Below, in pieces: positions 31,372 through 52,482 of a stretch of DNA of 64,000 nucleotides. Location: the NCBI GenBank assembly GCA_964349485.1, contig CAYGGE010000001.1, positions 142,212 through 206,211 of the forward strand, in the 5' to 3' direction. The notes below the pieces were generated by a model. That model saw only the letters and a list, made by a program, of their open reading frames with translations, did no database searches and was not told the origin of the DNA. The stretch comes from an uncultured Candidatus Saccharibacteria bacterium. Its GTDB lineage: Bacteria > Patescibacteriota > UBA1384 > CAYGGE01. Within the stretch, counting starts at the first letter, position 1; every line of letters starts with the position of its first letter. A program made the translations under genes and the position numbers.

Positions 31372-32328
31372 ATGCGCATACTCATCGCCGGTGGGGCTGG
31401 TTTCTTAGGTTCTCATCTTGCCGACCGTTACGCCGAAAACTACGACGTGGTAATTGTCGATAATTTGTCGACCAGTCGGAGTGATACTATTGACCATCTG
31501 ACGAGCAATCCGAAAGTTACGTTTGTGAAAGCAGATATTACGAAACCATTGCCTGCATCGGTAACCGATCTCCACTACGATGTCATTGCGAACTTGGCGT
31601 CACCTGCCAGTCCACCAGCTTATCAACGGTTAGCGATACCGACGCTTCACGTCGGCTCAATCGGGGTGGAACAGCTCCTCGAATTGGCTAGGAAAAATAG
31701 CGCCCGTTTTTTTCATGCCTCAACCAGTGAAGTCTATGGTGATCCCTTAGTTCATCCGCAAAAAGAGAATTATAATGGTAATACTAACTGTTACGGCCCG
31801 CGGGCCATGTACGACGAGAGCAAACGCTACGGCGAGGCGCTGATTTACGTCTATCGGCAACAATATCAGATGAACACGGGTATCATCCGTATCTTCAATA
31901 CCTATGGTCCACGCATGGACCCTAAGGATGGTCGCGTGGTCTCTAATTTTATCGTTCAGGCCCTTGAAGGCAAATCACTCACCGTGTATGGCGATGGTCA
32001 GCAGACACGGAGTTTTTGCTATGTTAGCGACCTGATCGACGGCATGGTGCGGTTTATCGATTCAAACGAAGAAGGGCCGATGAATCTTGGCAATCCAACC
32101 GAGTTTACGATCAGTGAGTTAGCTGAAAAAGTGAGAACCTTAGTCGGTACCAAACTACCGATCGTCCGTCAGCCGATGCCGGTCGATGATCCTTTACAAC
32201 GTAAACCGGATATTAGCTTAGCTAAAGAGCGTTTAGATTGGGAACCACAGATTCCGCTTGAGGAAGGGCTGGCGAAAACGATAGATTATTTCCGTCATCA
32301 GTTGACACTGACGAAAGGTGAACAATGA
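31372..32328 (+). CDS. uxs: UDP-glucuronate decarboxylase (UDP-xylose synthase, UXS family SDR)
   Basis: MRILIAGGAGFLGSHL (Rossmann), NTNCYGPRAMYDESKRYGE (UXS-type YxxxK region). GGAG RBS. Confidence 0.8.
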   Translation: MRILIAGGAGFLGSHLADRYAENYDVVIVDNLSTSRSDTIDHLTSNPKVTFVKADITKPLPASVTDLHYDVIANLASPASPPAYQRLAIPTLHVGSIGVEQLLELARKNSARFFHASTSEVYGDPLVHPQKENYNGNTNCYGPRAMYDESKRYGEALIYVYRQQYQMNTGIIRIFNTYGPRMDPKDGRVVSNFIVQALEGKSLTVYGDGQQTRSFCYVSDLIDGMVRFIDSNEEGPMNLGNPTEFTISELAEKVRTLVGTKLPIVRQPMPVDDPLQRKPDISLAKERLDWEPQIPLEEGLAKTIDYFRHQLTLTKGEQ

Positions 32329-33629
32329 AAATTACCATGATTGGTGGAGTTGGATATGTCGGTCTAGTGAGTGGGGCTTGTTTGGCCGACCTTGGTAACG
32401 ATGTGATCTGCACCGGCCGCGACCAACAGAAGATTGATGGCCTGAAACTCGGCAAGAGCCCGATCTATGAACCAGGCTTGGAAGATGTCCTTGAGCGCAA
32501 TATTAAGGCCGGTCGACTTAAATTTACGACCAACAATACAGAAGCTATCCAAGCATCGGATATCATTTTCTTGACCGTCGGTACGCCGTCAGCCGCCGAT
32601 GGCTCGGCTGATCTGTCGCAGATCGACACCGCTGCTATGGAAATAGCGGAGGCTTTAAAGGCAGAGCAAACCCAGCGTTACCGAGTTATTGTCAACAAGA
32701 GTACCGTACCGATCGGCACTGGTGAGCGTGTTCGCAAGATTATCGCCGACATCTACGACGGCCCTTTTGACGTGACATCGAACCCAGAATTTTTACGTGA
32801 AGGTTCAGCCGTCCAGGATTTTTCTGTACCTGACCGAGTAGTGATTGGGGTAGAAAGTGAACAAGCCAAACAGATCCTCAATGAGCTTTACATTCCACAA
32901 AACGCACCAATTCTTTTCACCAACTTAAAGACCGCTGAGATGATTAAGTATGCCGCTAACTCTTATCTGGCGACTTCAATTTCGTTCATGAACGGGTTGG
33001 CCCAACTTTGTGAAGTAGTTGGAGCCGACGTAACCAAAGTGGCGCAAGGGATGCGTTACGATCAACGAATCGGTCAGAAAGCTTTTCTCGATGCTGGTAT
33101 AGGTTACGGTGGGGCTTGTTTTCCGAAGGACGTCAAAGCCTTAAAGCATATCAGCGAAGAGCATGGTGCGCCCCTAGCATTACTTGAAGTGGTTGAGGCA
33201 GTTAATAAGCGCCAGAAGATCGCTCTGGTGCCAAAAATTGAGACAGCGCTCAATGGGCTTTCGGGTAAAACAATCGCTGTCTGGGGTCTAGCCTTCAAGC
33301 CTAATACCGACGACATGCGTGAGGCGCCAAGTGTCGCGTTGATCAATGCCTTGCAAACTAAAGGGGCAAAAATCAATGCCTATGACCCAGTGGCGATGGA
33401 TAACGCCCGTCAGTATCTCCCTGACATCAACTATTCGACTAGTCCACTCGAGGCCACTAGTGGGGCTGATGCGCTGGTTATCGTCACTGATTGGTCAGAA
33501 TTCAAGGCAATTGAACTAACCTCGATCAAGCAATCACTAAGTCGACCGCTGGTCTTTGATGGACGCAATATGTACGATCCAGCGACCGTCAAAGAGGCGG
33601 GTTTTGATTACATCTCGATTGGTCGATAG
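32325..33629 (+). CDS. ugd: UDP-glucose 6-dehydrogenase
   Basis: MKITMIGGVGYVGLVSGACLADLG...GGACFPKDV (catalytic Cys). 434 aa. Confidence 0.85.
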   Translation: MKITMIGGVGYVGLVSGACLADLGNDVICTGRDQQKIDGLKLGKSPIYEPGLEDVLERNIKAGRLKFTTNNTEAIQASDIIFLTVGTPSAADGSADLSQIDTAAMEIAEALKAEQTQRYRVIVNKSTVPIGTGERVRKIIADIYDGPFDVTSNPEFLREGSAVQDFSVPDRVVIGVESEQAKQILNELYIPQNAPILFTNLKTAEMIKYAANSYLATSISFMNGLAQLCEVVGADVTKVAQGMRYDQRIGQKAFLDAGIGYGGACFPKDVKALKHISEEHGAPLALLEVVEAVNKRQKIALVPKIETALNGLSGKTIAVWGLAFKPNTDDMREAPSVALINALQTKGAKINAYDPVAMDNARQYLPDINYSTSPLEATSGADALVIVTDWSEFKAIELTSIKQSLSRPLVFDGRNMYDPATVKEAGFDYISIGR

Positions 33630-33693: not shown

Positions 33694-35100
33694 ATGAAAA
33701 TGCTACAGCAAAAAGGAGTCCTGTTTTGGTTTGTTCAAATCATTTTTTTTAGTGTCTTAGCTTATCTGGCGTTCCACTATCGGCGCTTAACCGACTTCCC
33801 AATCGGTGACGACCCGGCGGCCCACATCCAAACGATTAAAGATTTTTCCTATACTGGCCTATTGCAGACCAGTTATCCACTGCCATTACTCGTCTTTAAA
33901 TTTTTTCATGACCTGACACGCTTACCTCACTACGAGGTTTTTGTCTCACTAATCTCAACTTTCCTGCTGGCTGCTGCTTGCATGCTCTATGCTTTTATCT
34001 GGCGAGTCACTGGTGATTGGCGAACCGGTGCAGTTGCCGCAGTGCTGTTTGTGGTCGCTCGGTGGGTTAACGATGGCTTACGAATGGGCTTGCTAGCTGA
34101 AGTTTTTGGCTGGTCGGTGCTTTTTGCCGCTCTGTTTGCTTTTAGCATGAAGCATAAGTGGCTGACTATCGCCACGAGTGGCTTGCTACTCATCTCTCAT
34201 CCTTTTGGCTTCACGATCTTTGCCCTGATAGTCTTAATGTCCGGTTTGGTCAGTCTTTATAGGGGGAGCGAGGATGAACGTCAATTCGTCATCCAACTAT
34301 TTAAGATCTATGGTGTGCTGTTCCTCCTCGGGATCGTGGTTCGGCCGGGACTATTTGTCGGGGTTTTGAATTTTGCGCCCGGTGACCCAACAGACTGGGG
34401 CAACCGGACCCTTTGGCAGATTATTGCCGGAGATGATATGAGGCGTGCTCTGGTGCCGTTCCTGGCATTGGTTGGACTGTTCGTCGCGCTCAAAGATTGG
34501 GAGAAACCATATATTAGAGCCTCATTTTTCTTACTGGTGATCGGTCTATTCTTGTCCTTAAATCATATCCTTGGTATTGGCTTTATCTCTTTTCGGTTTT
34601 ATGTCTATCTTGAGATGGGCATCGCTATCTTTGCCGCCTTAGCGTTAGTCGAATCAGTTCGACTGCTCCGACTGCCTGTGCTGGTTAGCGGTGCAATCCT
34701 TTTGGTATTGACTGCCATGTTGGTCTTGCCAAACTATAAGGTCAATCAGGAGATCGGACATTGGCAGGCGACCAATCCCGATGCCAAAGCGGTCATGTTG
34801 CCGACCGATCGTGCGGCCCTTGACTGGATAAAAGCCAGCACTAAAGAGAACGATGTGATTATTGTTCCAGCGCGCTACATGCTTTGGGTTATCGCTTATG
34901 CTGATCGACGCCATGTGATCACCAGGCCCGAAGTTTACGATAACGATGACTATACCCGTCACTTAGCCGAGCGGACTGAGTCACCGATCCAAGGTGATTA
35001 CATCTATTATGGCCAAGGGCAGAGTGAGCCATACCAGCTAGCTGAACACCATCGTTTGGTATATACCAAAGGCGGGGTTCGTATCTGGAGGAAAGAATGA
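33694..35100 (+). CDS. Polytopic integral membrane protein, hypothetical (possible polymerase or GT-C-like)
   Basis: 468 aa with 12 or more hydrophobic helices and no soluble catalytic motif recognised. Sits inside the glycan locus. Confidence 0.4.
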   Translation: MKMLQQKGVLFWFVQIIFFSVLAYLAFHYRRLTDFPIGDDPAAHIQTIKDFSYTGLLQTSYPLPLLVFKFFHDLTRLPHYEVFVSLISTFLLAAACMLYAFIWRVTGDWRTGAVAAVLFVVARWVNDGLRMGLLAEVFGWSVLFAALFAFSMKHKWLTIATSGLLLISHPFGFTIFALIVLMSGLVSLYRGSEDERQFVIQLFKIYGVLFLLGIVVRPGLFVGVLNFAPGDPTDWGNRTLWQIIAGDDMRRALVPFLALVGLFVALKDWEKPYIRASFFLLVIGLFLSLNHILGIGFISFRFYVYLEMGIAIFAALALVESVRLLRLPVLVSGAILLVLTAMLVLPNYKVNQEIGHWQATNPDAKAVMLPTDRAALDWIKASTKENDVIIVPARYMLWVIAYADRRHVITRPEVYDNDDYTRHLAERTESPIQGDYIYYGQGQSEPYQLAEHHRLVYTKGGVRIWRKE

Positions 35101-35462
35101 TTGAGATTAGGAAAAGTTTGATTGCTACGCTCTTTATTGCTAGCACCTTAATGATCTATGTCATGCCAGAATTGCTGCAATTATCAGTTATTCTTGCGTA
35201 CATATCGGTTGGTATTACTTTGGTTCTTGAACCAAAAAGTGCTTATCGAGCAGCCCTATTGGTTATCGGAGCGTTATATGTCTGTATTGTGTTTGTTGGT
35301 CAGATCAGTCCATATCCCTGGCTTATTGATCAGCGAGTGGCCTTTCCTGTCGCCGTTGCACTGACACTAGCTCTACTTTTTGGGACAATTGGACTCATTC
35401 TCTTTCTACCGTATCTTGTTCAGCGACTAGTCGCCAAGTTTAGGTCCGTGCGGAGAAAGTAG
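35097..35462 (+). CDS. Small 3-4 TM membrane protein, hypothetical
   Basis: 121 aa, hydrophobic, with a C-terminal KFRSVRRK tail. ATGA-coupled. Confidence 0.35.
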   Translation: MIEIRKSLIATLFIASTLMIYVMPELLQLSVILAYISVGITLVLEPKSAYRAALLVIGALYVCIVFVGQISPYPWLIDQRVAFPVAVALTLALLFGTIGLILFLPYLVQRLVAKFRSVRRK

Positions 35463-35572: not shown

Positions 35573-36691
35573 TTGAAGATATTAATGATAGTCCCGTATT
35601 TTGCGGAGTCTGATCGCTGGATGATCTCCGGTCAGAAGACCGCCCATGCCCTTTCGAAAGAGCACCAAGTGACCGTCCTCACTACGGGGAGAGAGCCTGG
35701 CGTACGGCAGTTGGGCCCGAACCTCACCGTTCATCGATTGAAGGATATTTTTCTTCCTGATCCAATCAATTATTCACTTATTCCGGGACTATTTAAGGCC
35801 GTTCGGTCGATTGTCAAGTCGCAGAAACCCAATATCTGTCTGATAAATAAGCACATGTTTCAAACAGCTTGGACGGTTTGGACCGTGAAGCGCCTGGGTG
35901 TGCCGGTTTTGGTCCAGACTGACACATTCCCTGGAATTAGTTGGTTCCCCAGACGCAAGTTTGTCCGTCTAGTCATGTGGCTATACGCCCGCCTGATCGG
36001 TGTGCCAATACTACGGGCGGCCGATAAAGTGATCCTTCTCCATGAAGGTCTGGTAGCGACGGCTAAACAACTTGGTCTGAATTACCAAGTAATTCATAAC
36101 GGTATTGATCTCGATCATCTGGCTACGTTAAAGGCTCCACGCGATCTAGTTAAGCCGAAAGATGAGGTTTGGGTCGGCTATGTTGGCCGGCTTGAGTCGA
36201 TCAAAGGTTGGTACGATTTGGCGGCTGTTGCCAAAGAGCTTGCTGACCAGTATCCTAAAGTAAGGTGGTTATTCGTTGGTCAAAATAAAGTGGCGTCAAC
36301 TCGAATAAATGCCGAATTTAATCATCCAAATTTGATATTCTTAGGTCAGCGGACCGATGCGCTTGGTATCTATCAACTTCTCGATGTCTTTGTTTTACCC
36401 TCTTATTCTGAGGGCTTACCTAACGCCTTGATGGAAGCGATGGCCAGTGGCCGATGTTGCCTGTCGTCAGCTGTTGGTGGAGTAAAGTATCTGTTAAAAG
36501 ATGAGCAGTCCGGTTTGTTGTTCCAGCCGGGTAATCGTCAGCAATTGACTAAACAACTGAAGCGAGTTCTGTCTGACACTCAGTTACGCGCTAAGCTTGG
36601 CAGTCAGGCCAGAAAAACGATCGAACAGGACTATAATCTTAGTAAGACTACCGATCAACTTAATCAACTATTGGCGGAATATGTCTCTTAG
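35573..36691 (+). CDS. Glycosyltransferase family 1 (GT4)
   Basis: SEGLPNALMEAMASGRCCLSSAVGG motif. Probable TTG start with an AGAGGA RBS 6 nt upstream; the alternative ATG is at 35585. Confidence 0.8.
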   Translation: MKILMIVPYFAESDRWMISGQKTAHALSKEHQVTVLTTGREPGVRQLGPNLTVHRLKDIFLPDPINYSLIPGLFKAVRSIVKSQKPNICLINKHMFQTAWTVWTVKRLGVPVLVQTDTFPGISWFPRRKFVRLVMWLYARLIGVPILRAADKVILLHEGLVATAKQLGLNYQVIHNGIDLDHLATLKAPRDLVKPKDEVWVGYVGRLESIKGWYDLAAVAKELADQYPKVRWLFVGQNKVASTRINAEFNHPNLIFLGQRTDALGIYQLLDVFVLPSYSEGLPNALMEAMASGRCCLSSAVGGVKYLLKDEQSGLLFQPGNRQQLTKQLKRVLSDTQLRAKLGSQARKTIEQDYNLSKTTDQLNQLLAEYVS

Positions 36692-38873
36692 CATCGCAAC
36701 TATTACAAAGAGCTATAGACAACTCACTCTGCGATACCAGTGGTTAGCTTATTATCTTCTCTTCAGTCTACTGGCCGCAGGTCTCTTCGTTCTCAGCTTG
36801 AGGCTGGCTACCAATGGTTTTCCGTACCTTCTTCACTTGGTAGGCCTGGTAGTATTTTTTATTCCTGGGCTGACCATTACACTTGCGGTTGAGCAGTTAG
36901 TTGGTGCCCCGCAGTCCTTATTTCGACTATTTCTCTGGGGCTTTATTTGCTCTCTGACCTTCAATCCGACAGCCATTTTTATCCTCGGGCAACAGTTGGA
37001 TCGCCCGGCCATGACAAACGTGCTTTTTCTGTTTTCGATCTGGTGGCTCGCTGTTTTAGGCATCCTCACAATATTCTATATGATCAAAGCGAGTCCAACC
37101 GGTCTCACTTTTCCACGTTTCCCGACCTATTCTCGAAGCGTCTTATGGGTAATGCTGGTCAGTTTGGGTGTGTTAGCGATTCACTTTATCCTATATCCTT
37201 ATATTCCTGAGGTAGATGGTTATGCCAACATCTTATCGGTTGAACGACTTAATGATTTTCCCAAGGAACTGAACTCTGAACCAAGATTTCTCTACCTATT
37301 GCTTACCCAGATCCTCTCCGTACTTTCGGCGATTTCACCATACTGGCTGTATAAATTGGTTCTCCCGCTATTCAATCTAGTTCCCCTACTCGTCTTACTT
37401 CGGATAAGCCAACCAATTAAAATAGCTTGGCTACGTTGGCTATTAGTCCTATCCTTGTTTTCGGCTCCTGTTGTAGTAGAGGAGATGGTGATTACTCGTC
37501 CGCAGTCAATCTTCTTTCTGACTCTTCTACCAATTTGCTATCTTTTAGGAAAATACTCACTCGAGCGTCGTCCGGCAAGTAATATTTTCTGGCTGGTCAC
37601 TCTAGCCGCGGTGGTTGTCTTAGGTAGTGGTATCCACGGCATGTTCATCCTAGTCGCCAGCCTTATTCCATGTGCCATATTGGTCTATTACTGGCAAAGC
37701 ATTAAACGATCTCCACTCGATGCAGTCATCGTTGGCCTAGCGGTACTCATCGCTATCTATCCTTGGTTAGCTAAGCTTGATTTTCTTGGCTTTATCATGG
37801 GGACCGGTCAATTAGTCATCAATATCATCCGGGAATCACATTTTGAGTTTTGGTTTATCGACAACTATACAAATGTCGATGGTAATTCGATCGGTTGGCC
37901 TGGCTGGTCAAGTTTATACTACTACGGCTATAATACCGGACTGTTTTTACCTGTCGGTATAGGTGTAGCGCTTTGGCTAGCAGTTAGAGTGCGGAATATT
38001 TCGCCTAGACCTTGGGTTCTTTCTTGGCCAATCATTGGTGCCTTGCTAATCTTTTTTGCTGTAGCTGAGATATTCCCCCGTTTTGGATTTGCCTATTTAC
38101 CTGATCGTGCTTGGCTATTCATTAGTGCTTTGACGCCGATAGTTTTAATGTTCGTCTACCAGTTTATAGGCAGTGAACAGTTGACACGTCAGGTTCGTAT
38201 CCTACTGATCGGCAGTCTGGTGCTGTCGATCGTGGGTGGGTGGTTGACTACCTACTTAAAACAGGGTTGGGTTAACCGCAATGAATATAAGACACTGCCG
38301 TTTATCCAAAAGGAATTGCCTGAAAATTCGTTGATTCTTACTCAGTCAGGTAACAGAGTCTTGATTAAGTATTTTGCTCGGCGCTACTTCCTGGCTCCAC
38401 CAGGAGAAGTATTCTACGACACGGATATATCAAGTCTTGACACCTTTGTTCGTGATACGTTGTCGGAAGATCCGACACAGAAAATTGAGCAATCACCGGC
38501 CGATATCGAATCCAAGCGTCGGGATAGTCGACAGTCGATCAACGAGCTCCTCTCTAGTTTTTATGTCACTACGGATGCAAACTCAAGCCTTGAAGTGATT
38601 AAGCAATTAGAGGATCGACTTAAAGAATATAGCAAACTAGTAATCAAGGTTGATCAAAACGACGCTAACCAATCAGTAAAGATTGAGAAGGAGCGAGATT
38701 ATAAGACCCCAATCTATCTGCTTTACTCATTTAATCGCTTTAATGGGCTATATGGTATGCGCGATTGGTGGTTAAAGTCGAACTTTCAGGGTGCTAACCT
38801 CGATAAGTTTACCGAGAATTACCCCCTTATCTATGATCAAGATGGGGTGATGATCTGGGAGATTCGAAAGTAA
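36681..38873 (+). CDS. Large GT-C-fold-like membrane protein (YfhO/ArnT/PMT-like architecture), putative polyprenyl-P-sugar-dependent extracytoplasmic glycosyltransferase
   Basis: Start taken at ATG 36681 (MSLSIATIT), overlapping the preceding stop. About 13 or more TM helices plus a roughly 250-aa C-terminal soluble domain. No WWDYG oligosaccharyltransferase motif. Confidence 0.4.
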   Translation: MSLSIATITKSYRQLTLRYQWLAYYLLFSLLAAGLFVLSLRLATNGFPYLLHLVGLVVFFIPGLTITLAVEQLVGAPQSLFRLFLWGFICSLTFNPTAIFILGQQLDRPAMTNVLFLFSIWWLAVLGILTIFYMIKASPTGLTFPRFPTYSRSVLWVMLVSLGVLAIHFILYPYIPEVDGYANILSVERLNDFPKELNSEPRFLYLLLTQILSVLSAISPYWLYKLVLPLFNLVPLLVLLRISQPIKIAWLRWLLVLSLFSAPVVVEEMVITRPQSIFFLTLLPICYLLGKYSLERRPASNIFWLVTLAAVVVLGSGIHGMFILVASLIPCAILVYYWQSIKRSPLDAVIVGLAVLIAIYPWLAKLDFLGFIMGTGQLVINIIRESHFEFWFIDNYTNVDGNSIGWPGWSSLYYYGYNTGLFLPVGIGVALWLAVRVRNISPRPWVLSWPIIGALLIFFAVAEIFPRFGFAYLPDRAWLFISALTPIVLMFVYQFIGSEQLTRQVRILLIGSLVLSIVGGWLTTYLKQGWVNRNEYKTLPFIQKELPENSLILTQSGNRVLIKYFARRYFLAPPGEVFYDTDISSLDTFVRDTLSEDPTQKIEQSPADIESKRRDSRQSINELLSSFYVTTDANSSLEVIKQLEDRLKEYSKLVIKVDQNDANQSVKIEKERDYKTPIYLLYSFNRFNGLYGMRDWWLKSNFQGANLDKFTENYPLIYDQDGVMIWEIRK

Positions 38874-40762
38874 TGTGTGGGATTGCTGGTAAAGTCTATT
38901 TTAATGAACAAACTGTCGCAGAGTCTGATCTCGATGCGATGGGTGAGGCAATAAAACATCGTGGTCCAGATGATTCTGGGACTTATCTCTCCGCCAATAA
39001 ATCCGTCGGACTGGCTTTCCGTCGATTAGCCATTATCGATCTCTCGGCCAAAGGTCATCAACCGATGAGCTATAAAGATCGTTACTGGATTGTCTTTAAT
39101 GGGGAGATCTATAACTTTGAAACCGAACGCGAGGCGCTCATTAAACTCGGTCACCGGTTTAATTCCAAGACTGATACTGAAGTTATTTTGGCCCTCTACG
39201 ATCAATATAAGGAACGCTGTCTAGATCACTTACGAGGAATGTTCGCCTTTACCATCTACGACGAACAAGAACAGAAGCTCTTTTGTGCTCGGGATAGGGT
39301 TGGTAAGAAGCCGTTCAAGTTTTATTATAATGACCAAGTTTTTATGTTCGCCTCTGAATTGAAAGCCATTTTGACTCAACCTGACTACAAGAAGGAGATC
39401 GATTACACGGCGATTCATCATTATTTGACCTATCAATATGTCCCGGCCCCGCGAACTGGCTTCTTGGGAATTGAGAAGTTATTACCCGGTCATTATCTGA
39501 CTATTGATGTAAAGACAGGTACAGTCACTAAGAAACAGTATTGGCGGCTTGATTATCGAACCAAGCTTGAACTTGACGAAGCAACATGGCAGCGACGGAT
39601 TATGGAGAAGCTCGAAGAATCGGTCAGGTTGCGGATGATAGCCGATGTACCACTTGGTGCCTTCTTGTCCGGAGGGATAGATTCTAGTGCTGTGGTGGCA
39701 CTCATGAGTAGGCACAGTTCAACGCCGGTTAAGACCTTTTCAATCGGTTTCAATGAACGAAAGTATAGTGAGCTAAAATATGCCAAGCAAATTGCTGATC
39801 AGTTCAAAACTGATCATACCGAATTCATTGTCGAACCGAGCGCCGTTGAGGTCTTACCATTACTTGTTCAGCATTATGAAGAACCGTACGCTGACTCGAG
39901 TGCTCTGCCCAGTTATTATTTGAGCAAGCTGACCAGGGAACATGTCACCGTGGCGTTGAACGGTGACGGAGGGGATGAAAATTTTGCTGGCTATTCGCGT
40001 TACAGTGTCCAAAAATTTGCTCTGGCGTATGATCGGTTTCGCCTAGTTCACCGCTTAATTGGTAAACCGGCCGCCGCCGCCTTTTACGCCTTAGTACGCA
40101 ACACTTTCGCCGAACGTGCTAATCGTTTCGCAACGACCATGGCCAAGGATTATCCGGCTCGTTATGTAAACTACATCTGTTATTTTACGAATCAAGAGAA
40201 GGCCCGGCTTTATACTGACCAATTTGCAGCCAAAACCCACGACATCAATAGTGAGGATGTGGTGGCTCTGCAATTTGCCAGAGCGAAAACCCCGGACAAA
40301 CTTGATCAAACGCTTTACGCTGACTTTGCTAGTTATCTACCCGATGATTTGCTGGTTAAGATGGATATTGCCACTATGGCTGTCTCGCTTGAAGCTCGTT
40401 CACCGTTTCTGGATTACGAGTTACTCGAGCTGACCGCTAAATTGCCCGTTGATTTAAAGCTTAAGGGTCGGGATGATAAAAAGTATATACTCAAAGAAGC
40501 CCTTCGGGGAGTTATTCCTGATGATGTAATGTTCCGGCCGAAAATGGGTTTTGGCGTGCCGATTGAACAGTGGTTTAGAGGCGACCTTGATGCTTATATT
40601 CGATCGATCCTTCTCTCGAAACGTTTAACTGATCGTGGTCTATTTAAGCCTGAGGTGATTGAGCAGATTCTCAACCAACATCAACAGACTAAAGTTAACT
40701 ACGCCAGACAAATATGGGCGCTCTTAACCCTTGAACTGTGGTTTAGAGAATACTTTGATTAG
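38873..40762 (+). CDS. asnB: Asparagine synthetase B-type glutamine amidotransferase (WbpS-like, likely uronic-acid amidation in this context)
   Basis: MCGIAGKV (N-terminal Cys nucleophile) and SGGIDSS (PP-loop). 629 aa. Confidence 0.85.
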   Translation: MCGIAGKVYFNEQTVAESDLDAMGEAIKHRGPDDSGTYLSANKSVGLAFRRLAIIDLSAKGHQPMSYKDRYWIVFNGEIYNFETEREALIKLGHRFNSKTDTEVILALYDQYKERCLDHLRGMFAFTIYDEQEQKLFCARDRVGKKPFKFYYNDQVFMFASELKAILTQPDYKKEIDYTAIHHYLTYQYVPAPRTGFLGIEKLLPGHYLTIDVKTGTVTKKQYWRLDYRTKLELDEATWQRRIMEKLEESVRLRMIADVPLGAFLSGGIDSSAVVALMSRHSSTPVKTFSIGFNERKYSELKYAKQIADQFKTDHTEFIVEPSAVEVLPLLVQHYEEPYADSSALPSYYLSKLTREHVTVALNGDGGDENFAGYSRYSVQKFALAYDRFRLVHRLIGKPAAAAFYALVRNTFAERANRFATTMAKDYPARYVNYICYFTNQEKARLYTDQFAAKTHDINSEDVVALQFARAKTPDKLDQTLYADFASYLPDDLLVKMDIATMAVSLEARSPFLDYELLELTAKLPVDLKLKGRDDKKYILKEALRGVIPDDVMFRPKMGFGVPIEQWFRGDLDAYIRSILLSKRLTDRGLFKPEVIEQILNQHQQTKVNYARQIWALLTLELWFREYFD

Positions 40763-40765
40763 CCT

Positions 40766-41881
40766 ATGAACCCTAAAAGACGGATCGTCCACCTCATTAT
40801 CTCGTTAAATAGTGGTGGTTGTGAGAATATGCTGCTTCGAACCTTGCCGCATCTTACCACCGACTTTGTGATAACCGTGGTTACTCTTAAAGAGCCAGGT
40901 CAGCTGGCACAGTCTATGATCGGGCAGGGCATTGAAGTGGTCAATGTCAATTGGCAAGGCTTTTTTGATTTTGCTGGGCTTCGTAGGTTAAAATTGATTA
41001 TTCAAGAGCTGAAGCCAACCCTCATTATCACCTATCTCTTCCACGCTGACATGATTGGCCGACTTTACTTGCAATCACGACTGGCGGTGCCGATCATGCC
41101 ATTTTTGCGAACTACCCACAATTATCCTCGCTATTGGCCTGCTTTGGTTTTAGAGTGGCTGACCAAGGGAACCGTACGGCACTATCTGGCCTGCTCGGAG
41201 GCGGTGAAGCAATATTACCACCAGGTGATTGGCGTGCCAGAACGAAAGATTACGGTTATCCATAATGGAATTGACGCTGACCGATTTGAGACAGCTAATG
41301 GTCAAGTGGTGCTACAGGAGCTTCAGCTACCAAGCAAGCGCTTGGTCTTTACCTGCGTCGCTAACCTGGCTCGTAATAAGGGACACCGCTATCTTTTTGA
41401 GGCTTTTGAGTCGACATTTGCTGGGCATCCCGAAGCGATTCTGCTAGTTGTGGGTGCAGGTCGTCAGGAGTCTAATCTAAAAGCTCAAGTGAGCAAGTAT
41501 CAGTCACGTGATAATATATACTTTTTGGGTAGGCGTGATGATATACCGAAACTGCTGGCGATAACTGACATTTTTGTCTTACCTACTCTATTTGAGGGTA
41601 TGTCGAATGCCCTCTTAGAGGCACTGGCGGCTAAACTCGCAGTGATTACAACTGACATTCCTCAAAATAAGACTGTGATTACCGATGGTCAAACCGGATT
41701 ACTTGTACCAGTTCGAGATGCCAAAAAATTGGCGTCAGCGATGCTCGCTTTAGCTAACGATCCAAATCGGCGTAAAGATTTTAGTCAAAACGCCTCGAAG
41801 CTTGTCAGAACTGATTTTGATCTAGATACTATTGTTAAACAATGGAAAGAGGTACTTAATCGTTATGCCAAGAAGTCATGA
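40766..41881 (+). CDS. Glycosyltransferase family 1 (GT4)
   Basis: FEGMSNALLEALAAKLAVITTDI motif. Confidence 0.8.
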   Translation: MNPKRRIVHLIISLNSGGCENMLLRTLPHLTTDFVITVVTLKEPGQLAQSMIGQGIEVVNVNWQGFFDFAGLRRLKLIIQELKPTLIITYLFHADMIGRLYLQSRLAVPIMPFLRTTHNYPRYWPALVLEWLTKGTVRHYLACSEAVKQYYHQVIGVPERKITVIHNGIDADRFETANGQVVLQELQLPSKRLVFTCVANLARNKGHRYLFEAFESTFAGHPEAILLVVGAGRQESNLKAQVSKYQSRDNIYFLGRRDDIPKLLAITDIFVLPTLFEGMSNALLEALAAKLAVITTDIPQNKTVITDGQTGLLVPVRDAKKLASAMLALANDPNRRKDFSQNASKLVRTDFDLDTIVKQWKEVLNRYAKKS

Positions 41882-42713
41882 ATTATATGAGTCAGTCTAC
41901 CACCAACCTAACCGCTTCAGTTTTGGTAGAAACTGGCAGGATTATTTAAATTCACTTACTCCATCGCGAATCAAAGCCGCCGAAGCCTCACTTGTTGATT
42001 GGCTAGGTAGCGGACTAAAGGGGAAGACTTTTGTCGATATCGGCTGTGGGAGTGGACTGTTTTCGCTTGCCGCCTATCGCCTTGGGGCAAAGTCTGTGGT
42101 GAGTGTCGATGTTGATCAGTTCTCGCTCGATTGTGCCCGTGAACTTCGCCAACGTGAAGGAGCGCCAGCTCATTGGGAAGTGAGCGCCGGCTCAGCGCTC
42201 GACCCGAAATTTCTTAAGACCCTTGGTAAATTTGATATAGTTTACTCATGGGGTGTGCTACATCACACTGGAGACATGGACCAAGCCTTAACCAACGTCT
42301 CAAAACTAGTTGGCAAGGATGGTCAGTTATTTATCGCCCTATATAACGATAACCACCGAGTGCTTGAGGGCACATCAGCTTTCTGGCTACGGGCTAAGCA
42401 GTTCTACAATAGTGGAAGTAATTGGCGTAAAAGGGCCATCGAGGCAGTATATACTGTTTACTATATTATTGGCCTCGTCTTTAATGGTATCAACCCTGTT
42501 AACTACATCAAAAACTACGATAGTTTACGAGGAATGAGTTTCTTCATCGATATTCGAGACTGGCTCGGTGGTTTGCCCTATGAATATGCAACTACCCAAT
42601 CGATCATCGATTTTTTCGCCGCCCGGGGCTTTGACAGCCAGAAAGTTGTGAAGGCCAGAAGTATTGGCTGTAATGAATTTCTATTTAGAAGACATAGAGA
42701 TCATCATGAATAA
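41865..42713 (+). CDS. Class I SAM-dependent methyltransferase
   Basis: FVDIGCGSGLFSLAA (motif I). Start taken at ATG 41865 (MPRSHELY). Confidence 0.7.
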   Translation: MPRSHELYESVYHQPNRFSFGRNWQDYLNSLTPSRIKAAEASLVDWLGSGLKGKTFVDIGCGSGLFSLAAYRLGAKSVVSVDVDQFSLDCARELRQREGAPAHWEVSAGSALDPKFLKTLGKFDIVYSWGVLHHTGDMDQALTNVSKLVGKDGQLFIALYNDNHRVLEGTSAFWLRAKQFYNSGSNWRKRAIEAVYTVYYIIGLVFNGINPVNYIKNYDSLRGMSFFIDIRDWLGGLPYEYATTQSIIDFFAARGFDSQKVVKARSIGCNEFLFRRHRDHHE

Positions 42714-43503
42714 GCCTACAGTCAGTATCTTACTCTCAGTTTACAATGGGAGAGAAACGCTTGCTCGGTGTCTGCACTCAATCGAGCAGCAGACTTATCG
42801 ATCCTGGCAAATTATTGCTATCGATGACGCATCAGACGATGGTAGTCACTCGATTCTTAAAGAGTGGCAATTACGTCTGGGCCAAGATCGACTAGTAATT
42901 GTCACTAATCAGACCAATTTAGGACTAACCAAGTCATTGAACAATGGTCTCAAGGTTATCGATACACCGCTTACGGCCCGAATAGATGCAGATGACTGGT
43001 GGGACTCGGAAAAACTAACCAAACAAGTTGAATTCCTACGGTTACACATCGATTGCGGCGTCGTTGGATGTCAATATATAAACATCTATGGATCGAAGGA
43101 ACTTAGAAGTAAACTGCCGGTTGATGACCGAGCGATTAGAGCCCGTATCTTCATGGGTAATCCATTTGCTCATAGCTGTGTGCTATTTCGGACCGATCTA
43201 GTCAAGAAACTTGGTGGTTACGATGAGACGATCCGTTATGGCCAGGATTATGATTTATGGCTAAGGGCCTATGGTGTGACCCAGTTCCACAATTTACCAG
43301 AGTATCTCTGCTTTCGGTCAGTCGAAAGCGGGATATCGGTTGATAATCAGAGTCGACAGATGCGTCAAGGCATGAAGACCCAATTGAAATACCTCAAGCG
43401 GTACCATCGACCGTTGCATCAATACCTCTCCTTGATCAGTCTGTGGATTATTAGCTTGGCTCCTCGTTGGGTATCGAAACTACGTCGGCAATTATCGAGG
43501 TAA
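42706..43503 (+). CDS. Glycosyltransferase family 2
   Basis: MNKPTVSILLSVYNGRETL, IDDASDDGS and DADDWWD (DxD). Start at ATG 42706. Confidence 0.8.
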   Translation: MNKPTVSILLSVYNGRETLARCLHSIEQQTYRSWQIIAIDDASDDGSHSILKEWQLRLGQDRLVIVTNQTNLGLTKSLNNGLKVIDTPLTARIDADDWWDSEKLTKQVEFLRLHIDCGVVGCQYINIYGSKELRSKLPVDDRAIRARIFMGNPFAHSCVLFRTDLVKKLGGYDETIRYGQDYDLWLRAYGVTQFHNLPEYLCFRSVESGISVDNQSRQMRQGMKTQLKYLKRYHRPLHQYLSLISLWIISLAPRWVSKLRRQLSR

Positions 43504-43508
43504 AAATA

Positions 43509-45047
43509 ATGTCATTGCTATCGATTAAACTACCGCAATTATTCCGGCCTTACAGCCTCTTCTTTTTGGCAGTTTGTGTCCGGCTACTCTACCTCAACTA
43601 CTTTGGGGCCCCAGAAGGAGTTGACTCAGGTTTTTATCAGGAGAATGCAACAATCCTTATTAACGCTGGATATAATCCGTTAGCATTATTGGCCTATAAA
43701 GTCCCACCTTACTATTGGCTATATTCAATGGTGATAGCTCTCCTAGCTAATAATCTGTACGCAGTCATTGGTTTACAGATTTTTTTAGCGGGTCTATCAA
43801 GCGTCCTAGTATATAGTATAGCCAAATCTGTTTTCAGTGAAAATGCAGGTATCTTGAGTGGTCTGTTTTACGTCTTCCTCTTCGAACTGTTCCAATGGGA
43901 TACGTATATTCTTACTGACTCGTTATTCGTATTCATCTTAGTACTTGCGACCTATGTGGTGGTGAGGCGTGAAGATTGGAAACGGTTGAATTGGCTTATC
44001 TTGCTTAGTTTGCTTTTACTCGCGATTATTATGCTTCGCCCGACAGCGTTCCCTTTTCTGGCCGCCCTGGCGCTGTTTTGGCTCTCCCAGGTTACACCAA
44101 GTAAACGGCGCATCATTGTCTCTTTTCTCCTCATCGTTCTCGGGATGGTTGGCCTTGGTGCATATGCTATGGGCTTGTTCAGCCAAGGTGAAGGACTGAA
44201 TATCGCTCACTATTTACGCTATTATATTGATAATTTTCGCCAAGGAATCGTGATTCGAGATCGATTGGCCTATAGTCTACCGGTCCAGTGGGATCCGGGA
44301 TTGACTGTATCGAACTTAGTCCTAGCCATCTCCATTTTCATCCACCGTATAGCAGCATTCTGGTTCATTACGGTCAAGGAATTCTCACTTTGGCATAAGG
44401 TATTTAATCTATTTACCCTGACCCCCCTCTTTTTATTCGCTTTAGTCGGCTATTTTCGTAAGAAGCGAGAGGTGATCAGGCCAGCCTACATTACCTTATT
44501 CAGATACTTGATCGGAGTCTTTGTTCTTTTCCAGGCGATGACCGAAGTCGATTATGATTTTCGCTATCGGGTGCCAGTGCTACCATTTGTCATACTGTTT
44601 GCAGGTTATGGCCTGACGATTATCAAGCCGACGAAACTATTCCCCAGAGCTAGACTATTCGAGCTAGTTCGTTACATAAGTGTTGGTTCACTTCTTGCAT
44701 TGACCGATTTTGTGCTATTTGGTGTGCTAAACTATTTGCATGTCAATATATACTTAGCCGCTCTATTGGATTTTGTGGTAGGGATGATCATTGGCTACCT
44801 CTTGCATAGTCGCTTTACGTTTAGATATGACACCACTGGCAAGCAGATACAAAAATTTTCCCAGCTCATTGTCGTGGGTCTCGGTGGACTTATTATCACT
44901 TGGCTGATACTCTATTGGGTAGCTGATGGAATGGGCATACATCCTGCGTTAGCCAAGTTTATTGCCATGTGTCTGTCCTTCATCTGGGCCTATTCCATGA
45001 ATCGTTGGTGGGTATTTCGCCGGTCATCAGACAGCCCAATTGTTTGA
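43509..45047 (+). CDS. Fusion membrane protein: N-terminal ArnT/PMT-like (GT-C-type) polytopic domain plus C-terminal GtrA-like domain
   Basis: Start at ATG 43509 (MSLLSIKLPQ). C-terminal RYISVGSLLALTDFVLFGVLNYL...CLSFIWAYSMNRWWVF is characteristic of GtrA-family small flippase-like proteins. Confidence 0.55.
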   Translation: MSLLSIKLPQLFRPYSLFFLAVCVRLLYLNYFGAPEGVDSGFYQENATILINAGYNPLALLAYKVPPYYWLYSMVIALLANNLYAVIGLQIFLAGLSSVLVYSIAKSVFSENAGILSGLFYVFLFELFQWDTYILTDSLFVFILVLATYVVVRREDWKRLNWLILLSLLLLAIIMLRPTAFPFLAALALFWLSQVTPSKRRIIVSFLLIVLGMVGLGAYAMGLFSQGEGLNIAHYLRYYIDNFRQGIVIRDRLAYSLPVQWDPGLTVSNLVLAISIFIHRIAAFWFITVKEFSLWHKVFNLFTLTPLFLFALVGYFRKKREVIRPAYITLFRYLIGVFVLFQAMTEVDYDFRYRVPVLPFVILFAGYGLTIIKPTKLFPRARLFELVRYISVGSLLALTDFVLFGVLNYLHVNIYLAALLDFVVGMIIGYLLHSRFTFRYDTTGKQIQKFSQLIVVGLGGLIITWLILYWVADGMGIHPALAKFIAMCLSFIWAYSMNRWWVFRRSSDSPIV

Positions 45048-47130: not shown

Positions 47131-48096
47131 ATGCCAACAGATTTACCAGTGAAGTGGAAAGTTTTGAGCACGATGGATATCAGCCACTGTCCACAGGCTT
47201 TCGATCTACTCAAAGAACAGACCGACTTCACCTATATGACTGCCGATCAAGAAAAACTCAAGGAGGTTATTAACGATTACGATATCTATATCTCTACTCT
47301 CGGTGTTCGGGTGACCAAAGAGATGCTTGATCGCCAAGGTCGTCTCAAGGTAATCGCTACTCCTTCAACGGGGACTGACCACATCGATTGCGCCGCTGCT
47401 GAGGCAAATGGGATTACAGTCCTATCCTTAAAAAAAGAGACCAAATTCCTTGATCGGATCACCGCCACAGCTGAGTTGACCTGGGGACTATTACTATCGG
47501 TTGTCCGTAATATCCCTACTGCCTTCGAAGCAGCTAAACAGGGCAGGTGGGCCCGTGATGAATTTCGAGGTCGTCAATTGTCTGGCAAGACCTTAGGGAT
47601 TCTCGGTTATGGTCGTTTAGGTCGGATCGTCGCAGACTATGGGCAGGCATTTCGGATGAAAGTCTTGGTCAACGATGTCAAATCGATCAACTCTAGTCCT
47701 GGCATAGAGGTCGTTGATCTTGATACCTTACTTAAGGAATCAGATGTCCTCTCAATTCATATCCATCTCACTGATGAAAATAAACAATTCATTAATGCTA
47801 CCGCTTTCCAAAAAATGAAAAAAAGTGCTGTACTAATCAACACCAGTCGCGGTGGTATTGTTGATGAGCAGGCACTTATTGAAGCTCTCAGCTCAGGTCA
47901 ATTGGCCGGAGCGGGCGTTGACGTTATCGATGGTGAATGGGACACTGATCTAGCTAATCACCCAATGATCCGTTACGCGAAGGATCACAACAATTTAATT
48001 ATCACCCCGCATATCGGCGGTGTTGCTCATGAGGCGCAGAGCATGGTCTTTGAATTTCTAGCTGAAAAGATTATGGAACATATTACAAAGAGCTAA
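47131..48096 (+). CDS. D-isomer-specific 2-hydroxyacid dehydrogenase family (NAD-binding)
   Basis: Start ATG 47131 with an AGGGG RBS. GILGYGRLGRIVA (GxGxxG), INTSRGG and HIGG motifs. Confidence 0.8.
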   Translation: MPTDLPVKWKVLSTMDISHCPQAFDLLKEQTDFTYMTADQEKLKEVINDYDIYISTLGVRVTKEMLDRQGRLKVIATPSTGTDHIDCAAAEANGITVLSLKKETKFLDRITATAELTWGLLLSVVRNIPTAFEAAKQGRWARDEFRGRQLSGKTLGILGYGRLGRIVADYGQAFRMKVLVNDVKSINSSPGIEVVDLDTLLKESDVLSIHIHLTDENKQFINATAFQKMKKSAVLINTSRGGIVDEQALIEALSSGQLAGAGVDVIDGEWDTDLANHPMIRYAKDHNNLIITPHIGGVAHEAQSMVFEFLAEKIMEHITKS

Positions 48097-48812
48097 AGGT
48101 AGAGCCCTTTTTCGCGGAACTTACGTAGCATATACTCAGCTGTCACCCAGTCGAATTCGGTGTCGATATCGACGTATCGCTCTTGGGGGACGATGTGGCC
48201 CACAATATGGTTGCCGAATAGTTTGTTCTCTTTCATAAACAGGTCGCGTTTCATGACATAAACATGTCCACTGCGTCGATAGGCTGGAGGGAGGTCTTGT
48301 CGTCTACGGCCTTCAGGTTCATCCATGAAGTAGGGCAGGACATTTTGCCCATCTAGTCGCTTAGCTTTCATGGGGTGTTTACCACTTTCGATTTCAACGA
48401 TGGATACTGCACTATCAGCATCCGTTTTTTCGATCAAGGCGATCGTCTCATCGATATCTTCAACCAAGCGAAATGGTGAAGTTGGCTGGAGGATGACTAT
48501 ATAGTCGTAAGTGTAGCCCCTAGCATTCTCCATATGAGTGATAGCGTGCTGGACTACTGGCAGATGTGGGGTATTATCTTGGGCGAGTTCGGCAGGACGA
48601 ATGAAAGGAATCTCGACACCAAGCTTTCCGGCAATCTCGGCAATCTCCTGATCGTCGGTCGAAACAATCAGATCGGTGATCGCCTTACTCCGTTTCGCTA
48701 TATCGATGGTGTAGGCGATAAGTGGCTTGCCCCCAAAATCTTTAACATTTTTTCGAGGCACCCCTTTTGAACCACCTCGGGCCGTAATGATCGCTAAAAC
48801 TCTCTTATCCAT
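48093..48812 (-). CDS. neuA: CMP-nonulosonic acid (N-acylneuraminate) cytidylyltransferase
   Basis: LAIITARGGSKGVPRKNV cytidylyltransferase signature. 239 aa. GGTGG RBS. Confidence 0.8.
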   Translation of the reverse strand: MDKRVLAIITARGGSKGVPRKNVKDFGGKPLIAYTIDIAKRSKAITDLIVSTDDQEIAEIAGKLGVEIPFIRPAELAQDNTPHLPVVQHAITHMENARGYTYDYIVILQPTSPFRLVEDIDETIALIEKTDADSAVSIVEIESGKHPMKAKRLDGQNVLPYFMDEPEGRRRQDLPPAYRRSGHVYVMKRDLFMKENKLFGNHIVGHIVPQERYVDIDTEFDWVTAEYMLRKFREKGLYL

Positions 48813-48844
48813 AATCCACCTTTGTAATCTATACTAACTTGAGT

Positions 48845-50023: not shown

Positions 50024-51108
50024 GGTTGCTCCAATACTTCTGCTGTAATCGGCTCATATTTGCTGAGATGTTTAGTCACTTTCCGGCCAAGAACTGATTC
50101 GTAGTCCTCAGAAGGTAGTCCACCTGCGTACGCTTGCGGTCGCATGGCGTAGATCAATTCAGGCGAAAGGGTAGTCCCAGGAGCAACGTCGGCGCCTGCC
50201 ATGAGCGACTTGCGAAATAGCGGTCGAAACTTGGCTTCTTCCTCCTGAAGGAGCTTCGTCTCTTCACCGTAGTCGGCCAAATTAACCGGCTTTTTATGTC
50301 GTAGACTATCAACCATTGCCTTAAACTCATCTGGCATTAGCGATACTTTGTGATCAGAACCCCAGAGTTCACGACTCCAAGAGAAATGTTTTTCGATGAC
50401 AACTGCACCCATTGCCGCGGCGGCTAAGGTTGCATCGGCTTCGAGCGAGTGATCTGAAAAACCGATCGGGATTTCGTATCGCTTCTGGAAAAATTCAATT
50501 GTCTTTAAGTTAAAATCTTTTGGATCAGTCACCGGGTATTGGGAGACGCAGTGCAAAAGAACCAGTTTGTCAGTTCTTTTTTTGAGAAAAGCTACTGCCT
50601 TATCAACTTCTTCCAGTGTACTCATCCCTGAAGAAACAATAATCGGCTTACCGGTTTGGGTCAGATAGTCGAGTAACACAAAATCGAGTAGATCACCTGA
50701 TCCAACTTTCCAGATTGGTGGATCGATTGCCTCAAGCTTTTGGGCGGCTCCACGGCTCATTGGGGTAGAAAAGAAGATAATATCGAGCTCGTCGCTATAG
50801 GTCTTTAAGGCCTGCCAGAATTCAGGTGGCGTAGCTTCGGTATTACGTTTGACCCAGCTGTAACGATCGCTACCAGAGAAATGCGGAGCGGTCACGTCAA
50901 TATTGAGTTGCTCATCGCGGTAATCATGGGTCTGTAGTTTCACCGCATCAGCACCAGCAGCCTTGGCGGCCTTAATGAGAGATTTTGCGTTTTCAATATA
51001 TACTTCGACAGACTGGTCTTCTTTTGTTTGGATAAAATTTTTCCCGATTTCAGCAATCGTGAAAATATCCTTCTTAATATATTCCATGAGATCAGGCTTA
51101 GGCATCAT
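50020..51108 (-). CDS. neuB: N-acylneuraminate (nonulosonate) synthase, NeuB family (PEP-dependent TIM barrel plus SAF domain)
   Basis: IAEIG, FSTP, KVGSGD, IVSSGM, LLHCVSQYP, GFSDHS and IEKHFS motifs in NeuB order, with a C-terminal SAF-like region. Confidence 0.75.
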   Translation of the reverse strand: MMPKPDLMEYIKKDIFTIAEIGKNFIQTKEDQSVEVYIENAKSLIKAAKAAGADAVKLQTHDYRDEQLNIDVTAPHFSGSDRYSWVKRNTEATPPEFWQALKTYSDELDIIFFSTPMSRGAAQKLEAIDPPIWKVGSGDLLDFVLLDYLTQTGKPIIVSSGMSTLEEVDKAVAFLKKRTDKLVLLHCVSQYPVTDPKDFNLKTIEFFQKRYEIPIGFSDHSLEADATLAAAAMGAVVIEKHFSWSRELWGSDHKVSLMPDEFKAMVDSLRHKKPVNLADYGEETKLLQEEEAKFRPLFRKSLMAGADVAPGTTLSPELIYAMRPQAYAGGLPSEDYESVLGRKVTKHLSKYEPITAEVLEQP

Positions 51109-52480: not shown

Positions 52481-52482
52481 TT

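Follow-up and report, generated by a model that had tools for sequence, protein, structure and literature searches.

Three-component systems of extracytoplasmic glycosylation combine a polyprenyl-phosphate-sugar synthase, a GtrA-type membrane protein and a glycosyltransferase of the GT-C fold. The same three functions are found in GtrA/GtrB/Gtr(type) of phage and enterobacterial O-antigen glucosylation and in GtcA/CsbB(GtlA)/YfhO(GtlB) of Listeria and Bacillus (PMC11127046, PMC7389260). In Streptococcus pyogenes (GacI/GacJ/GacL, with GacK) and in Mycobacterium tuberculosis (PpgS/Rv3632/Rv3779) the synthase is a short soluble glycosyltransferase of family 2 (GT2) with a three-helix activator of the DUF2304 family. 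The small DUF2304-type protein binds the GT2 and raises its activity, pairs of the GacI/GacJ type make a polyprenyl-monophosphate N-acetylhexosamine (HexNAc), and the GT-C enzyme GacL uses N-acetylglucosamine (GlcNAc)-P-undecaprenol, the sugar being added to the wall polysaccharide outside the membrane (10.1101/180810). Lipid A aminoarabinose is provided by ArnC, ArnE-ArnF and ArnT. In the dolichyl-phosphate-mannose (Dol-P-Man) synthase of Pyrococcus furiosus (5mlz in the Protein Data Bank, PDB), a GT2 carries a GtrA-like four-helix domain, which shows that such a domain, covalently joined to an enzyme, can serve it as membrane and lipid-carrier module. The role of GtrA is unsettled in the literature, which sets its assumed function as a flippase of lipid-linked sugars against that of an anchor recruiting a GT-C, as for Rv3789 (PMC7389260). 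Here we analyse 64,000 nucleotides of DNA from an uncultured Candidatus Saccharibacteria bacterium (contig CAYGGE010000001.1, positions 142,212 to 206,211; hereafter the window). Its dense surface-glycan biosynthesis locus, delimited at 28-60 kb by open reading frames (ORFs) and hidden Markov model (HMM) searches, encodes a protein of 512 amino acids (aa) in which a GT-C module is fused to a GtrA module (43509-45047, plus strand), a 730-aa protein of GT-C fold (36681-38873, plus strand) and a GT2-DUF2304 pair (58722-59755, minus strand).

In our judgement this locus probably carries components of an extracytoplasmic glycosylation route that depends on a polyprenyl-monophosphate sugar. At the cytoplasmic face, the GT2 at 59072-59755 would load a sugar derived from a nucleotide sugar onto polyprenyl phosphate, assisted by the DUF2304 protein at 58722-59075 as in GacI/GacJ and PpgS/Rv3632. 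The lipid-linked sugar would then be carried to the outer face, where the two GT-C enzymes, the 730-aa protein and the fusion, would each transfer sugar to an acceptor outside the membrane, using as putative catalytic residue an acidic side chain of the first outer loop (D39 in the fusion, D179 in the 730-aa protein). In the fusion, GtrA would deliver or hold the lipid-linked donor, and this step would be coupled directly to the use of the donor by the GT-C module. A preliminary description of this stretch had proposed a GtrA/GtrB/GT-C triad. An ORF check found every ORF that it named in place, and the parts of the triad are supported by HMM searches, by fold and by the gene context of relatives, whereas a gtr cassette is not present: the genes are spread over about 23 kb on both strands, and the compact order gtrA-gtrB-gtr(type), absent from the window, has a counterpart in cassette form only in relatives. 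The known logic of three-component extracytoplasmic glycosylation is unchanged by these results. Still, the locus departs from the gtr systems in that GtrA is fused to the C-terminus of a GT-C and the genes are dispersed, and in that the synthase is of the GacI/PpgS plus DUF2304 type instead of a GtrB with two membrane helices of its own. Unlike in the Listeria and Bacillus systems, neither GT-C of the window matches YfhO (PF09586).

The fusion gene is a single continuous ORF. PMT_2 (PF13231) matches residues 66-214 with 39.8 bits and GtrA_DPMS_TM (PF04138) residues 388-503 with 70.8 bits, the Pfam curated cut-off being 26.1 in either case. The GT-C module (residues 1-372; 43509-44624), recognised by PMT_2, fold and conserved columns, is followed by a short basic linker of about 10 residues (approximately 373-379, KPTKLFP...; 44625-44645) which joins the last GT-C helix to the first GtrA helix, and by the GtrA module with its GtrA_DPMS_TM match and four helices (residues 380-512 and the stop codon; 44646-45047). 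HMMs and fold bear out the fusion of an ArnT/PMT-like N-terminus to a GtrA-like C-terminus that had been read from this ORF. That it arose as an assembly or frameshift artefact from two adjacent genes is so improbable that it can practically be dismissed. A free-standing gtrA does adjoin the GT-C gene in two related loci, L014 and L040, yet there it lies upstream, while the GtrA module is C-terminal in the fusion. The ORF is unbroken, at least five contigs of NCBI, Logan and ENA assemblies encode the identical 512-aa protein, and seven homologs from different samples (34-48% identity), falling into two clades, carry the same two-domain fusion. One of these is OGY37299.1 of Candidatus Andersenbacteria, and it is from this lineage of the candidate phyla radiation (CPR) that the closest fused relative comes. 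A stop codon with a restart between the domains, which would be the sign of an artefact, is absent in all eight fused sequences. Since the same protein is found in independent assemblies and seven homologs are likewise fused, the fusion is not an assembly artefact. Seven other homologs (376-437 aa) consist of the GT-C part only, and their C-terminus coincides with the start of the linker in the fused proteins; P0008 and P0010-14 of the alignment are among the unfused homologs that stop at the linker. In the structural model of the fusion the predicted local distance difference test score (pLDDT) falls below 50 at linker residues 375-377, and the loop is rich in K and R across the family.

We scanned 185,579 GTDB species genomes, the genome of the window not being among them, and found relatives of the GT-C module at 37 loci. 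The fusion is present at just one of them (1/37), that of Andersenbacteria, in line with the earlier statement that this architecture is uncommon. To judge from these sequences the fusion is rare within its GT-C family and so far confined to few CPR lineages. No described GT-C-GtrA fusion was found in a non-exhaustive literature search; both Pfam domains are already annotated on fused proteins in databases. A neighbour-joining tree of the GT-C modules contains two fused clades (bootstrap 97 and 99), the second of them sister to unfused proteins (bootstrap 91), with deeper nodes unresolved. From this arrangement it follows that the fusion was gained or lost at least two times.

The AlphaFold (AF2) model of the fusion, computed from a 15-sequence alignment, has a pLDDT of 84.4 and a predicted template modelling score (pTM) of 0.74. 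When it was compared with the PDB by Foldseek, 19 of the 19 top matches were GT-C enzymes with a probability of 1.00, led by ArnT (5ezm and 5f15) and followed by STT3, PglB, ALG9, DPY19 and Pmt4, at modest scores (E 6e-3 to 9e-2; template modelling (TM) scores 0.31-0.44, normalised to the whole fusion). In structure the GT-C module matches ArnT best; unlike ArnT, the fusion has a much smaller GT-C core (about 372 aa), no periplasmic C-terminal domain and no match to it at the sequence level. After the GT-C enzymes, the next fold family is the Pyrococcus Dol-P-Man synthase 5mlz with about 145 aligned residues, and this match lies on the C-terminal GtrA module. Sequence searches agree: when both GT-C proteins and their profiles were searched against PDB sequences, only the GtrA tail of the fusion matched, again to 5mlz, the only solved structure that matches this module. 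In 5mlz the domain is attached to a cytoplasmic synthase and serves the first step, whereas in the window it is attached to the presumed extracytoplasmic transferase of the last step. The four helices of the GtrA module span residues 380-409, 414-436, 446-474 and 479-500 in the AF2 model. A search with the GtrA domain only, limited by its word index, returned one match, a free-standing 130-aa GtrA of Candidatus Andersenbacteria with 40% identity, and the module can be aligned with the free-standing GtrAs of L009, L014 and L040.

Within the GT-C module, D39, Y43, E126, W130, L135-T-D137, L176-R-P-T179, D348, D350, R352, Y353 and R354 are invariant in 15 homologs. D39 belongs to a GxDSxFY motif directly after helix 1 (codon 43623-43625). 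The invariant residues fit a GT-C active site. In the same 15 homologs, loops rich in K and R and poor in acids are the N-terminus, 153-158, 194-198, 317-325, 372-381, 437-445 and the C-terminal tail, and loops with conserved acids are 33-82, 221-266 and 346-357. According to this charge bias (positive-inside), D39 and the TEVDYDFRYR loop would be located outside the membrane. The bias also supports a cytoplasmic position of the linker and of both ends of the GtrA module, which would correspond to the canonical orientation of GtrA. A cytoplasmic linker together with D39 on the outside would require ten crossings in the GT-C module, and therefore one of the helices 267-284 or 294-316 would not span the membrane.

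The genetic neighbourhood of the relatives gives further information on the GT-C module; for this, locally built HMMs were run against every ORF in the retrieved loci. Of 36 unfused loci, mostly from Sphingomonadales, 26 have a PpgS/GtrB-like GT2 directly upstream of the GT-C gene, with a gap of at most 8 nucleotides (nt) or an overlap, and the upstream GT2s of these distant relatives have two C-terminal hydrophobic helices at about residues 275 and 308. In L014 and L040 the gene immediately before the GT-C encodes a free-standing GtrA (139-141 aa, Pfam 69-76 bits), and the GT2 is found 2 kb upstream. As in the gtr systems, distant relatives of the fusion keep synthase, GtrA and GT-C as separate genes. 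Because of these GT2 and gtrA neighbourhoods, the family of the fusion's GT-C module can be regarded as the GT-C member of classical three-component systems, and its donor is probably a polyprenyl-phosphate sugar. A different arrangement is found in three unfused CPR loci, where the gene of a GT2 (313-357 aa) is followed by that of a small membrane protein of about 125 aa (L001, 9076-9447; L002, 5605-5982; L049, 3438-3815). These small proteins form one homologous group, and their similarity to EamA is weak and below the Pfam cut-off (best E 3.3e-4). The GT2 of L001 is AglJ/PpgS-like, and that of L002 has a rhamnosyltransferase model as its best match. The combination of a GT-C with a GT2 and a weakly EamA-like protein recalls the Arn system. 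Proteins of the ArnE/F type have been reported to be able to replace GtrA-like proteins (10.1101/2020.04.19.049825), and the protein of about 125 aa may, like ArnE/F, be a non-orthologous stand-in for GtrA. Gain or loss of the fusion and an EamA-like stand-in would both fit non-orthologous replacement of one function.

The existence of a natural and conserved GT-C-GtrA fusion argues that GtrA and GT-C act in physical contact. Within the overall picture it is conceivable, if somewhat doubtful, that the GtrA module is not a flippase but a module which binds the lipid carrier, provides a scaffold or nucleates a complex, translocation being left to another protein such as the Wzx-type protein at 2948-4447 or the polytopic protein at 52483-53847. 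A permanent covalent tie to the GT-C is what a scaffold model predicts, and the domain which matches the tail of the fusion is the membrane and Dol-P-binding part of the Pyrococcus synthase (5mlz). Moreover, Rv3789 has been proposed as an anchor that recruits the GT-C AftA (PMC7389260), a GtrA-like protein of Pseudomonas aeruginosa as a hub interacting with the GT-C TfpW (10.1101/2020.04.19.049825), and in S. pyogenes the Wzx-like GacK is thought to be the flippase for the product of GacI/GacJ (10.1101/180810). On the other hand, the ArnE/F proteins that can take the place of GtrA-like proteins are a flippase (10.1101/2020.04.19.049825), and the replacement of GtrA by a weakly EamA-like protein in unfused relatives resembles the swapping of a transport function. 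The fusion is also of practical value, as a single polypeptide of 512 aa suits structural or proteoliposome work on the role of GtrA.

The second GT-C candidate, the 730-aa protein, is polytopic and ends in a soluble alpha/beta domain of about 200 aa (residues 527-730). Searches of Pfam and NCBIfam, YfhO PF09586 included, gave no match even at E<=10; the earlier comparison with YfhO is not upheld by HMM, nor is membership of PMT_2. The GT-C fold likewise ascribed to it is supported: the 21 best PDB structure matches of its AlphaFold model (pLDDT 69, pTM 0.73) are, without exception, GT-C enzymes. STT3 and PglB lead (E 4e-4 to 3e-3), followed by DPY19, ArnT, ALG9 and Pmt4, the 21 matches spanning E 4e-4 to 0.7. 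A search of PDB sequences with the family profile returned noise only. In the model four additional N-terminal helices precede the GT-C core, and the membrane helices exceed the 13 counted in the preliminary description. We considered this extension as a cryptic GtrA and rejected it at the sequence level (hhalign probability 0.3%). The 730-aa protein differs from the GT-C enzymes of the Gac and PpgS systems by these four helices and by its lack of HMM similarity to named GT-C families (Rv3779 was not directly compared).

A profile built from nine homologs and searched against 1.84 billion representatives retrieved 426 members of the 730-aa protein family (345 at E<=1e-30), nearly all of 650-730 aa and with full-length matches. 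Judged by these matches, the family is compact and well delimited; it comprises about 400 clusters and is covered by neither a Pfam nor an NCBIfam model. Among 44 members, three have weak matches to PMT_2 (best 2.7e-5), one has a weak TMEM260-like match and eight match DUF6798. Invariant in these 44 sequences are D179, Y415, E463, P466, R467 and R476; further conserved positions are RPQ273-275, H319 and GWPG405-408. D179 (codon 37215-37217) lies in the motif P176-E-x-D179-x-Y after the fifth helix, and hhalign places it (PExDxY) on D39 (GxDSxFY) of the fusion family with E 6.4e-4, the probability being only 28%. With a GT-C fold that is invisible to Pfam and NCBIfam and with synteny to GacI/GacJ-like genes, this family merits a model and a name.

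This synteny is seen in several relatives. L009 and L010 have the order GT2 (229-230 aa)-DUF2304-glycosyltransferase of family 4 (GT4)-730 family; in L009 a free-standing GtrA comes next. The Andersenbacteria locus has the order GT2-DUF2304-661-aa homolog (E 6e-15)-GT4...AsnB-fusion. In L008 the order dehydrogenase-730 family-AsnB matches that of the window. Orthologs of the GT2 at 59072-59755 adjoin the 730 family in L006, L009 and L010, and those of L006 and L009 score like the GT2 of the window. In these relatives a GT-C-fold gene follows the GT2-DUF2304 pair, as GT-C accompanies GacI/GacJ, while in the window itself the pair stands apart from both GT-C genes. By synteny in L006, L009 and L010, the 730-aa protein would be a GT-C linked to the GT2-DUF2304 synthase pair.

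STT3 and PglB as the best folds, together with a faint match of the C-terminal domain of PglB, might also point to en bloc transfer of a preassembled glycan, with the 730-aa protein, and perhaps the fusion too, acting as oligosaccharyltransferase, ligase or polymerase. The GT4 wedged between GT2-DUF2304 and the 730-family gene in L009 and L010 could extend a lipid-linked sugar, archaeal AglJ is the second-best match of the GT2 at 59072-59755, and large secreted repeat proteins are encoded nearby. We nevertheless consider en bloc transfer unlikely. A WWDxG-type motif is missing from the 730-aa protein, whose sole WW (696-697, RxWWxxxN) is without D-x-G and neither invariant nor nearly so in the 44 members, and HMM searches gave no match to Wzy_C, O-antigen ligase or STT3. 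The order of GT-C families in Foldseek is not discriminating at TM scores of about 0.35. Furthermore, the family is syntenic with a monophosphate-sugar synthase pair of the GacI/GacJ type, whose known partners transfer single sugars (10.1101/180810). Transfer of single sugars from a polyprenyl monophosphate is the reading we prefer for both GT-C proteins.

For the first step of this pathway, the 227-aa GT2 at 59072-59755 (minus strand) is the only GT2 of the GacI/PpgS/AglJ class in the window. Its best NCBIfam match is PpgS with 144 bits over profile positions 3-223 of 226, followed by AglJ with 120 bits; both values are below the equivalog cut-offs (370 for PpgS, 325 for AglJ), so that they indicate the class only and not the sugar. 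The DUF2304 gene at 58722-59075 (minus strand; 117 aa, 42.2 bits with a cut-off of 25.5) has the same orientation, overlaps the GT2 gene by 4 nt and encodes three hydrophobic helices. The pair, formerly described as a DPM1/GtrB-like GT2 with its DUF2304 partner, belongs by its PpgS and AglJ matches to the polyprenyl-phosphate-sugar synthase class. We regard the GT2 as a candidate polyprenyl-phosphate-HexNAc/hexose synthase and, by analogy with GacJ and Rv3632, the DUF2304 protein as its presumed activator. A hydropathy scan, which called overlapping segments and was used qualitatively only, found no hydrophobic segments and no C-terminal membrane helices in either GT2 of this analysis, and neither qualifies as a GtrB proper. 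The second of them, the 265-aa soluble GT2 at 42706-43503 (plus strand; PF00535, 91.9 bits), had been counted among the components of the system. It is EpsE/TuaG/WcaA-like without membrane helices and not of the GtrB type; as a lipid-sugar synthase it was rejected, with EpsE as the best match (118 bits) and no PpgS-like HMM match. An equivalent GT2 (264-266 aa)-GT4 pair is found in L002 and L008 with no GT-C between the genes, and the GT2 at 42706-43503 is probably an ordinary cytoplasmic repeat-unit enzyme into whose neighbourhood the fusion gene was inserted.

Several observations weigh against a common monophosphate-sugar route. The only GT2 of the GtrB class is encoded on the other strand than the GT-C genes and 14-20 kb away from them, and the GT2 adjoining the fusion gene is of the wrong class. 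Fold scores of both GT-C proteins are modest (TM 0.3-0.44, E 4e-4 to 6e-3), and the pLDDT of the 730-aa model stands for moderate confidence. As its best folds are oligosaccharyltransferases, a diphosphate-linked oligosaccharide is a possible donor. In the AF2 model of the fusion 11 membrane-length helices precede the GtrA module, which would be inverted if all of them span the membrane; the topology of ten crossings is derived from charge statistics. Finally, flippase activity of the GtrA family has never been demonstrated biochemically (PMC7389260, PMC11127046).

The distance and orientation of the synthase pair also suit the view that several systems share a crowded glycan island, with separate glycans served by the GT2-DUF2304 pair, by the 730-aa protein and by the fusion. 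The window has at least nine GT4/GT2 genes, two TagF-like genes, a NeuB/NeuC/CMP-transferase set, two UDP-sugar dehydrogenases and Wzx, and the fusion family and the 730 family are found apart at many loci. Separate systems are nonetheless rather improbable in our estimation: a stretch of 10 kb in Candidatus Andersenbacteria likewise contains GT2-DUF2304, a member of the 730 family and the fusion, and the window offers one synthase of the needed class for two or three GT-C candidates. We infer from this that a single GT2 may feed both GT-C enzymes of the proposed monophosphate-sugar route.

With regard to the acceptor, the preliminary description had named the LTD and CarboxypepD_reg surface proteins encoded in the window as plausible targets in a presumably monoderm host. 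Both genes are real (LTD, 12938-15073; CarboxypepD_reg, 22302-25196, minus strand); their proposed role as acceptors is not supported, and the glycosylation genes are placed inside a polysaccharide locus. A glycopolymer is at least as likely an acceptor as a protein, and the one we favour, because these genes lie among GT4, amidotransferase, dehydrogenase, sialic-acid-type, TagF-like and Wzx genes. The STT3/PglB-like fold of the 730-aa protein would make a protein acceptor possible. In the euryarchaeal pathway, an AglJ-like GT2 primes polyprenyl monophosphate, a GT4 extends it to a short glycan and an STT3-like GT-C transfers this glycan en bloc. The order GT2-DUF2304-GT4-730 family might be read as a bacterial counterpart of that pathway, with en bloc transfer to the LTD and CarboxypepD_reg proteins and the fusion as a single-polypeptide machine for flipping and transfer. 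To us this seems very unlikely; if true, CPR bacteria would have an unrecognised protein glycosylation and a Rosetta-stone fusion bearing on the role of GtrA.

The remaining genes of the locus are as follows. On the plus strand, an epimerase and a UDP-glucose-type dehydrogenase (31372-33629) precede two membrane proteins of 468 and 121 aa (33694-35462) and a GT4 (35573-36691; Glycos_transf_1, 106 bits), whose 3' end runs 11 nt into the 730-aa gene. A GT4 is present at the equivalent position before the 730-family gene in L009 and L010. These GT4s share 23-28% identity with that of the window, which is generic GT4 likeness and does not show them to be orthologs; the position is conserved. Downstream of the 730-aa gene follow an AsnB-like glutamine amidotransferase (38873-40762; Asn_synthase, 353 bits), a second GT4 (40766-41881; Glycos_transf_1, 127 bits) and an S-adenosylmethionine (SAM)-dependent methyltransferase (41832-42713; Methyltransf_31, _12 and _11 with about 52 bits, true start uncertain), which leads to the 265-aa GT2 and the fusion gene. 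An AsnB-like gene adjoins 730-family or fusion-family genes in L002, L006 and L008 as well. After the fusion gene, two further GT4s and a 2-hydroxyacid dehydrogenase are encoded on the plus strand. The minus-strand part of the locus contains a CMP-sugar cytidylyltransferase, a NeuC-like 2-epimerase, NeuB and two TagF-like Glyphos_transf proteins (48093-55232), a 454-aa polytopic protein without HMM match between the two TagF-like genes (52483-53847), and a GT4, the second sugar dehydrogenase and an epimerase. The sialic-acid-type set beside the TagF-like genes suggests a polymer containing nonulosonic acid. Beyond the GT2-DUF2304 pair lie recA (60771-61832), recX and metK (62271-63413, minus strand), and a protein with HTH_25 (RodZ-like) and Glucodextran_B-like domains is encoded at 59947-60756 (plus strand) between the glycan locus and recA.

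The 468-aa protein consists of a helix, a loop with FPIGDDPAAH, some nine further helices and a soluble tail of about 118 aa. The gene of the 121-aa membrane protein overlaps its gene by 4 nt, and neither protein has an HMM match. Counterparts of both are present in L009 (463 aa, with 35% identity, and 121 aa) and, with weaker likeness, in L005 (482 aa, E 4e-5, and 125 aa). Profile comparisons of the 468-aa protein with the alignments A1 and A2, made to see whether it is a GT-C, were not significant (probability 3-20%). The two proteins may form a third GT-C-like module.

Sizeable ORFs without Pfam or NCBIfam match are located at 4882-6381 (plus strand), 10674-12529 and 29997-31253 (plus strand). 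They include a 499-aa single-pass protein and one of 418 aa that begins with a signal-like helix; the C-terminal helix of the latter and the basic tail after it resemble an anchor of the sortase or exosortase type. In L008, a carrier of the 730 family, five T4SS_pilin (PF18895) genes stand in a row at 1-2021 (minus strand), about 6 kb upstream of the family member. The host is a poorly sampled, deeply divergent lineage: in a clustering of about 15 billion proteins at 90% identity, RecA, MetK, RNase J, AsnB and the sugar dehydrogenase of the window (60771-61832, 62271-63413, 6683-8887 and others) each form a cluster alone. Most bacteria decode AUA with a lysidine-modified CAU tRNA; the window encodes an unusual tRNA-Ile with the anticodon TAT (UAU) at 10574-10649 (plus strand). 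Just upstream of metK, a SAM-I/IV riboswitch match is located at 63446-63584 (minus strand) with 41.7 bits, the Rfam gathering threshold being 41.1.

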